NCBI RefSeq assembly: GCF_003334385.1
Contig: NZ_QOWN01000234.1
Length of the DNA stretch: 201 nt
Source: Escherichia coli
Lineage (GTDB): Bacteria; Pseudomonadota; Gammaproteobacteria; Enterobacterales; Enterobacteriaceae
Reading direction: 5' to 3' (one strand)
Shown here: in pieces, positions 1 through 201 of the stretch
How the letters are laid out: every line of letters begins with the position of its first letter
How positions within the stretch are numbered: position 1 is the first letter of the stretch
Made by a program: the position numbers and the translations under genes
Notes under the pieces: generated by a model
Databases searched by the model: none
Seen by the model: the letters and a program-made list of their open reading frames with translations, nothing else
What the model was told of the DNA's origin: nothing

Positions 1-53
1 GACACCGCCCTTTCACGGCGGTAACAGGGGTTCGAATCCCCTAGGGGACGCCA
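1..53 (+). tRNA. gltT: tRNA-Glu (anticodon UUC), partial: 5' end lies before the window; 3' end with encoded CCA at 51-53. Spacer tRNA of an rRNA operon (gltT/gltU/gltV/gltW family; the exact copy cannot be assigned).
   Basis: Seen in sequence: anticodon stem CCGCC (5-9) pairs with GGCGG (17-21) around the 7-nt loop CTTTCAC (10-16), placing TTC at 12-14. T-stem AGGGG (26-30) pairs with CCCCT (38-42) around the loop TTCGAAT (31-37), which carries the conserved T-loop motif. The 3' acceptor strand AGGGGAC is 43-49, discriminator G at 50, CCA at 51-53. The whole stretch matches my recollection of E. coli tRNA-Glu from about its position 24 onward. Gene symbol is a family placeholder, since the four rrn-linked copies are identical in the tRNA itself. 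Confidence 0.95.
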
Positions 54-86: not shown

Positions 87-126
87 AATATCTCAAAACT
101 CATCTTCGGGTGATGTTTGAGATATT
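87..126 (+). promoter_or_regulatory. boxB-like stem-loop of the spacer antitermination region: long imperfect hairpin capped by a C(UUCG)G tetraloop.
   Basis: Seen in sequence: the outer stem AATATCTCAAA (87-97) pairs with TTTGAGATATT (116-126), 11 bp. A 2x2 internal mismatch follows (A98/C99 opposite T114/G115). The inner stem TCAT C (100-104) pairs with G GTGA (109-113), including one G-U pair (103:110). The loop is TTCG (105-108) closed by C104:G109. Its position directly upstream of boxA matches the boxB-boxA arrangement of rrn antitermination regions. The functional assignment is inference. Confidence 0.65.
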
Positions 127-141
127 TGCTCTTTAAAAATC
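127..141 (+). promoter_or_regulatory. boxA antitermination element (spacer copy) of an rRNA operon; RNA binding site for NusB/NusE(S10) in the rrn antitermination complex.
   Basis: Seen in sequence: TGCTCTTTAAAAATC at 127-141, which closely matches the rrn boxA core (leader form TGCTCTTTAACAATTTA) and the spacer boxA as I recall it. It sits right after a hairpin and inside an rRNA-operon spacer, as expected. Confidence 0.8.
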
Positions 142-167
142 TGGATCAAGCTGAAAATTGAAACACT

Positions 168-185
168 GAACAACGAAAGTTGTTC
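168..185 (+). other. Short hairpin with a GNRA (GAAA) tetraloop in the pre-23S spacer; probable structural or processing element of the rRNA precursor.
   Basis: Seen in sequence: GAACAAC (168-174) pairs with GTTGTTC (179-185), 7 perfect Watson-Crick bp, with loop GAAA (175-178). A T167:G186 wobble could extend it. Function is inferred. Confidence 0.55.
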
Positions 186-201
186 GTGAGTCTCTCAAAT
201 T

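Follow-up and report, generated by a model that had tools for sequence, protein, structure and literature searches.

In the rrn operons of E. coli, a boxB-like element followed by a boxA-like element has been described in the leader as well as in the 16S-23S spacer; this order is the reverse of that in lambda, and boxA has been regarded as the essential part (PMC6614801, PMC8632103, PMC10250234). All three papers cite Berg, Squires and Squires (1989, J Mol Biol 209:345) for this; the spacer element was reviewed by Condon et al. (1995), and rrn spacer boxB is defined by Berg et al. (1989) and in later reviews as a stem-loop 5' of boxA whose structure, and not whose sequence, is conserved. BoxA is the NusB-NusE binding motif (PMC2800207, PMC3177189, PMC8632103). 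Previous studies showed that boxA is both necessary and sufficient, and that boxB is dispensable under most conditions (PMC8632103, PMC10250234). For example, deletion of the leader boxB had little effect on 30S activity or growth, and the presence of boxB in rrn operons has been called 'puzzling' (PMC10250234). The rrnTAC is formed when NusA, NusG, SuhB and S4 join the NusB-NusE recruited by boxA. It is resistant to Rho, makes elongation faster and retains the nut-like RNA, whereby the 5' strand of the processing helix is offered to a 3' partner that lies far away (PMC6614801, PMC8632103); the contacts listed for the rrnTAC from cryo-EM are with boxA and the boxA-boxC linker, not with boxB (PMC8632103). 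The boxB of lambda lies 3' of boxA and is a 15-nt hairpin with a 5-bp stem and a GNRA-like pentaloop, which is bound by the arginine-rich motif of N (PMC8632103, PMC10250234).

The DNA studied here is a stretch of 201 nt (the window), which has 100% identical matches in nearly all of 5,426 complete E. coli genomes, at a median of 7 places per genome, and these matches lie under or beside tRNA-Glu. The window is a tRNA-Glu-type 16S-23S spacer of an E. coli rrn operon, the type being Glu because the 3' part of tRNA-Glu forms its beginning (Table 1). An annotated rrn operon locus downstream of clpB (L001) shows the order 16S (851-2392), tRNA-Glu (2478-2553), hairpin (2587-2626), boxA (2627) and 23S (2747 onward); window positions 87-126 correspond to 2587-2626 of this locus and window position 127 to 2627. 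The mature 23S would start at the window-equivalent position 247, and about 120 nt separate the end of the hairpin from the annotated 23S start. The boxA core TGCTCTTTAA has exactly two sites in this locus, at 707 in the leader and at 2627 in the spacer, where about 0.01 would be expected by chance. Its spacer copy begins at window position 127, immediately after the end of the hairpin at 126, and the linker between the two is therefore 0 nt.

There is no RefSeq annotation under the hairpin, and no Rfam family was found over 87-126 at gathering score. Matches obtained there at permissive E-values (SNORD24, ceN33, Spd-sr07, DicF and mir-8315) were rejected as sub-threshold chance matches. The StyR-44 family matched the window with 81.5 bits against a gathering score of 54 (E = 3e-13, model positions 1-71 in Rfam), and this covariance-model match covers only the part listed in Table 1, so that the hairpin is not a member of StyR-44.

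Table 1. Features of the 201-nt window, in window positions
Feature	Positions	Strand	Basis
tRNA-Glu 3' part (anticodon UUC)	1-53	+	Rfam tRNA match at 1-50; RefSeq tRNA-Glu end is window-equivalent 53 in L001
boxB-like hairpin, whole element	87-126	+	MFE fold, folds in larger context, covariation, RNAalifold
Outer stem 5' arm, pairs with 116-126	87-97	+	Both-side changes in homologues; 87 is a non-conserved terminal pair
2x2 internal loop, 5' side (AC), opposite 114-115 (UG)	98-99	+	Unpaired in MFE fold
Inner stem 5' arm (UCAUC), pairs with 109-113 (GGUGA)	100-104	+	Both-side changes in homologues
UUCG tetraloop, closing pair C104-G109	105-108	+	Sequence and MFE fold
Inner stem 3' arm	109-113	+	MFE fold, covariation
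Outer stem 3' arm, ends directly at boxA	116-126	+	MFE fold, covariation
Spacer boxA (UGCUCUUUAAAAA), NusB-NusE binding motif type	127-139	+	Core motif match; function from literature
StyR-44 5' part (pre-23S leader fragment)	131-201	+	Rfam match, starts inside boxA, 5 nt after hairpin

The element at 87-126 reads AAUAUCUCAAA-AC-UCAUC-UUCG-GGUGA-UG-UUUGAGAUAUU and is the sole long inverted repeat (I1) of the window. Its minimum-free-energy (MFE) fold consists of an outer stem of 11 bp, a 2x2 internal loop and an inner stem of 5 bp, which includes one wobble (U103-G110) and carries the C(UUCG)G motif. The stem is AU-rich, with only 4 of its 16 pairs being G-C. The folding energy was -15.8 kcal/mol (z = -5.27), and none of 200 dinucleotide shuffles was as stable (RNAfold). 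The same helix was retained when positions 80-145 or the whole window were folded. The architecture that had been proposed in the first-pass annotation, i.e., stems of 11 and 5 bp separated by a 2x2 loop and capped by C(UUCG)G, is therefore exactly that of the MFE fold, and the placement of the hairpin directly 5' of boxA also holds, the last paired base being followed at 127 by TGCTCTTTAAAAA.

For comparison with homologues, one-genome-per-species contigs were scanned with a degenerate spacer-boxA pattern anchored outside the hairpin, and 120 loci from Gamma- and some Betaproteobacteria were obtained. The 18 distinct Glu-type Enterobacterales spacers alignable to the window made up the alignment (A1); they represent Escherichia, Enterobacter, Citrobacter, Shimwellia, Rosenbergiella, Brenneria, Rahnella, Photorhabdus and one metagenome contig. 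A metagenome scan anchored on tRNA-Glu and boxA gave two loci, one of which was alignable. In the 18 spacers 96.1% of the pair cells were paired, compared with 21-46% when the 3' partners were slid by 1-3 columns. Changes on both sides were found in 7 of the 16 pairs, in the outer as well as in the inner stem; as the set consists of related taxa and several of these changes are common to sister lineages, the independent events are fewer than the cell counts suggest. The covariation score was reached by none of 500 column shuffles. In the outer stem the both-side changes fell in columns 9-51, 14-46, 15-45 and 16-44 (UA to GC, CG to UA and AU to UA), and in the inner stem in column pairs 22-37 (GC in 11, CG in 5, AU in 1 and GU in 1), 25-34 (UA in 13 and CG in 5) and 21-39, so that G-C to C-G and U-A to C-G changes are included. 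RNAalifold returned the same helix without the structure being supplied, with compensatory pairs at 8 of the 16 positions. The covariation that had been looked for between 87-97 and 116-126 is thus present, and it extends to the inner stem.

Not every part of the element is equally conserved. The outermost pair, 87-126 (columns 8-52), was unpaired in 8 of the 18 homologues, which limits the conserved outer stem to 88-97/116-125; the internal loop can be closed by a pair in some homologues (G-C in Rosenbergiella). Among divergent alleles of E. coli, variation was present only at 78-87, with the A87G allele retaining a G·U pair, and 88-126 was invariant in the alleles inspected, which is consistent with constraint and adds no compensatory events. 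The UUCG tetraloop had also been put forward as an argument for a conserved RNA structure rather than chance pairing. That argument proved only locally valid: the helix is conserved, but the loop itself varies. Most Enterobacteriaceae have UUCG, UACG, UGCG, UCCG, CUCG or CACG (UNCG/YNCG), and a UNCG loop was present in about half of the 18 homologues, with other loops outside Enterobacteriaceae; the other loops observed were GCGA (Brenneria), UAAC (Rahnella), UGGA/CUGA (Photorhabdus) and triloops (Shimwellia and one Citrobacter). Judged from the aligned sequences, the conserved entity is the helix and not the UUCG loop.

The flanks of the hairpin showed their own patterns. The block CUUGCUGGUUUGUGAGUGAAAGUC at 54-77, directly 3' of the tRNA, was near-invariant across Enterobacteriaceae and Rosenbergiella, and its GUGAAAG was kept even in Photorhabdus and Rahnella. 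Positions 78-86, just 5' of the hairpin, were hypervariable even within E. coli. A second hairpin with a GNRA loop (CACUGAACAAC-GAAA-GUUGUUCGUG) lies at 163-188 within the StyR-44 region, and its sequence varied between operons and species with the pairing being maintained. Its counterparts are GACACAC-UUUUAA-GUGUGUUC in the Ile/Ala spacer of E. coli and GACACACAGCUCAUGUGUGUUC in E. cloacae, and some Citrobacter and Shimwellia spacers had a longer insert in place of this region.

Based on these results, the hairpin is very probably the already described boxB stem-loop of the spacer nut-like signal (boxB then boxA) of the E. coli rrn operons. The identification rests on this being the sole stable hairpin between the tRNA and boxA, and not on the drawing of Berg et al. 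(1989). Like rrn spacer boxB, the hairpin lies in the 16S-23S spacer, 3' of the tRNA and directly 5' of boxA; it shows the order boxB-boxA and conservation of structure rather than of sequence, and it is a structure of the sense-strand RNA. No difference from rrn spacer boxB was detectable in this comparison, which was made by description and not by the sequence drawn by Berg et al. The suggestion that the hairpin is the boxB-like partner of boxA is accordingly upheld by its location in the spacer, its contact with boxA, the positive covariation and the literature on boxB-boxA in leader and spacer. A literature search with the hairpin sequence as a string gave no match among the papers searched, and a paper on the Sodalis ITS mentions only box A and RNase III sites.

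Two related assignments were considered and rejected. The hairpin shares with boxB of the lambda nut site its name, its contact with boxA and its nature as a hairpin in an RNA signal that loads Nus factors. However, it is situated 5' of boxA, is 40 nt long and has a 16-bp stem with an internal loop and UUCG, and a boxB of the lambda type was rejected because the hairpin is on the wrong side of boxA and is without the GNRA-like pentaloop. We know of no N homologue in E. coli that would bind it. The hairpin is also not the RNase III processing stem of pre-23S, a long-range duplex that joins the 5' and 3' flanks of 23S and is cut a few nt from the mature ends, since its helix is local, with arms lying within 40 nt and covarying with each other, and ends about 120 nt upstream of 23S.

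The boxB of the leader in the same operon (rrnG leader, L001 683-706, GCCGCUGAGAAAAAGCGAAGCGGC) is likewise a hairpin just upstream of boxA, in the order boxB-boxA, and it shows no sequence similarity to the spacer hairpin. It has a GC-rich stem of 6 bp, a 12-nt A-rich loop and a 2-nt linker (AC), whereas the spacer hairpin has an AU-rich bipartite stem of 16 bp, a UUCG tetraloop and a linker of 0 nt. The leader element is then followed by boxC (UGUGUGGG), and no boxC-like motif was seen after the spacer boxA within the window. Leader boxB is situated a few nt downstream of the expected transcription start of the P2 promoter, whose hexamers (TTGACT...TATTAT) lie at L001 642-669. If the -10 hexamer has been placed correctly, leader boxB would be close to a 5'-terminal stem-loop in P2 transcripts. 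StyR-215, a 62-nt RNA derived from the leader, was reported 123 nt upstream of 16S (PMC2943607), a position that would cover the region of leader boxB (L001 640-720).

A similar arrangement was found in the Ile/Ala-type spacer of E. coli and other Enterobacterales, where a hairpin (ACUUCAGAGUGUACCUGCAAAGGUUCACUGCGAAGU) occupies the same place, 0-2 nt 5' of an identical boxA. In an E. coli spacer of this type (L124) the hairpin has 36 nt at about 384-419 and boxA is at 422, leaving a gap of 2 nt. The hairpins of the two spacer types are alike in their length of 36-40 nt, in having a bipartite stem with an internal loop and in showing compensatory changes of their own, which in the Ile/Ala-type family were found in 7 of 13 pairs across 8 taxa. 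They differ in that their sequences are unrelated and in that the Ile/Ala-type loop is GNAA-like (UGCAAA/UGAAAA context) rather than UUCG. E. coli, Enterobacter, Citrobacter, Photorhabdus and Rahnella each had two unrelated hairpins preceding the same boxA, one in the Glu-type and one in the Ile/Ala-type spacer. In Rosenbergiella gaditana, the tRNA-Ala and the tRNA-Glu spacers (L017 and L018) both carried the Glu-type hairpin; the hairpins therefore behave as exchangeable blocks, and this pattern suggests block exchange or gene conversion between operons.

Among the other Gamma- and Betaproteobacteria sampled, most also had hairpins of unrelated sequence at this position. When the 50 nt upstream of boxA were examined, the last hairpin ended 0-1 nt before boxA in 53 of 84 distinct spacers, compared with 22 of 84 control windows displaced by 50 nt, and the corresponding numbers for an end at most 3 nt before boxA were 70 of 84 and 34 of 84. 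Four contigs from metagenome-assembled genomes (MAGs) of Ruminococcus, Blautia, Alteromonadaceae and Oleiphilus (L042, L086, L075 and L087) had the 19-nt boxA pattern without the downstream AAGCUGA and without an adjoining hairpin. These matches are probably chance or non-rRNA occurrences, which slightly dilute the statistics on the 84 spacers.

As a spacer boxB, the hairpin would belong to the 30S precursor, being transcribed once tRNA-Glu has been completed and some 120 nt ahead of the mature 23S, and would fold locally on leaving RNA polymerase. BoxA would emerge next and be bound by NusB-NusE (S10). NusA, NusG, SuhB and S4 would then join, and the rRNA antitermination/chaperone complex would be formed or re-established for the 2.9-kb 23S gene. 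What matters for the action of the hairpin is presumably shape and position, not a particular sequence or loop. The hairpin may constitute a structural boundary of the nut-like RNA that is held by the polymerase-bound factors during 23S synthesis.

A role in processing or stability, instead of or besides antitermination, is unlikely but has to be taken into account. The hairpin could mark an endonucleolytic boundary, or it could protect a spacer fragment or the tethered nut RNA from nucleases. StyR-44 was reported as a fragment of 109 nt that arises by processing of longer rrn precursors and can be detected in both E. coli and S. Typhi (PMC2943607). This stable rrn-derived fragment starts 5 nt after the hairpin, inside boxA, and its start at 131 therefore implies that an RNA 5' end is generated beside the hairpin; however, the position of that end was derived from a cDNA clone and the boundary of an Rfam seed and could be imprecise. 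With its 109 nt, StyR-44 would extend to about the RNase III site that immediately precedes 23S, and it is possibly a metastable intermediate of maturation. Canonical RNase III substrates have about 22 bp. The helix of the hairpin, with 16 bp and an internal loop, is shorter than these. On the other hand, the helix is strongly conserved although boxB was reported to be dispensable, which leaves room for another selected function, and leader boxB, within a few nt of the predicted P2 start, resembles protective 5' stem-loops. That selection retains the hairpin for a purpose other than antitermination, i.e., as a nuclease boundary or protective cap for the tethered nut RNA after tRNA excision, or as the end of a fragment of the StyR-44 type, is somewhat more doubtful still.

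A further possibility concerns how a spacer boxB would serve the adjoining boxA. The hairpin could act as an insulator, sequestering neighbouring sequence so that boxA stays single-stranded for NusB-NusE, but the calculations make this mechanism improbable. Partition functions were computed for 133-nt nascent RNAs of 86 spacers, a thermodynamic treatment without co-transcriptional kinetics or proteins. Scrambling of the 5' arm lowered the mean unpaired probability of boxA from 0.67 in the native RNAs to 0.63 (Wilcoxon p = 0.002), and in the E. coli Glu spacer from 0.86 to 0.72, which speaks for an insulator. However, deletion of the whole hairpin left boxA equally accessible, with a mean of 0.68 and a value of 0.89 in E. 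coli (p = 0.32). Therefore, the hairpin merely neutralises its own 3' arm in silico and there is no net gain.

An intrinsic terminator or a hairpin-dependent pause site inside the operon is very improbable. The hairpin resembles a Rho-independent terminator in being stable and followed by a U-rich, pyrimidine-rich stretch (UGCUCUUU, 5 U in 8 nt), and a naive scan had been expected to score it as one; contrary to this expectation, the consensus terminator scan flagged no site on either strand. Instead of a G+C-rich stem with an uninterrupted U-tract, there is an AU-rich stem (4 of 16 pairs G-C) that contains an internal loop, followed by an interrupted U-run, which is none other than the conserved boxA motif. 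Moreover, stopping before 23S in each rrn operon would be self-defeating, and the element was found in 5,349 of the 5,426 E. coli genomes, in about 4 operons each.

The structure could finally be read from the DNA or from the opposite strand. The wobbles of the stem in the homologues comprised 25 G·U and 0 A·C cells, and the sense fold (-15.8 kcal/mol) was more stable than the antisense fold (-12.1 kcal/mol), as is typical of a structure under selection in the transcript of rRNA sense. Together with its private 5' flank, the hairpin had a median of 4 copies per E. coli genome, equal to the number of Glu-type rrn operons. Although the hairpin is a near-perfect inverted repeat in the DNA and also folds as antisense RNA, a DNA-level feature (a palindromic protein-binding site, a cruciform or a REP/ERIC-like dispersed repeat) or chance complementarity can for practical purposes be set aside, because wobbles of G·U alone are those expected of sense RNA and speak against a DNA palindrome or an antisense RNA, the copy number speaks against a dispersed repeat, and the z-score and the covariation exclude chance. 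The heptamer UCUCAAA of the 5' arm (91-97) recurs at 193-199 in the 23S leader, and the 3' arm (UUUGAGA, 116-122) could pair with either copy. Pairing with the copy at 193-199 was rejected, as it is without covariation; in Photorhabdus the hairpin arm is changed and the downstream UCUCUCAA is kept.

The hairpin, as the spacer boxB, is a real and evolutionarily kept RNA structure that is already known, and it is ordinary rather than new. The value of the finding lies mainly in annotation, since automated scans will keep rediscovering the hairpin as long as it is without a RefSeq feature or an Rfam family. It also provides a clean, strand-specific case of covariation for spacer boxB as a selected RNA helix, and it documents, within a single genome, two unrelated hairpins that fill the same place in the two types of spacer. 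Because the helix is clearly under selection and its presence has been called puzzling in reviews, rrn boxB likely has a function beyond antitermination as seen in the classic reporter assays. If it were true, a role as boundary or cap would explain why rrn boxB is structurally conserved across bacteria and yet dispensable in antitermination assays.
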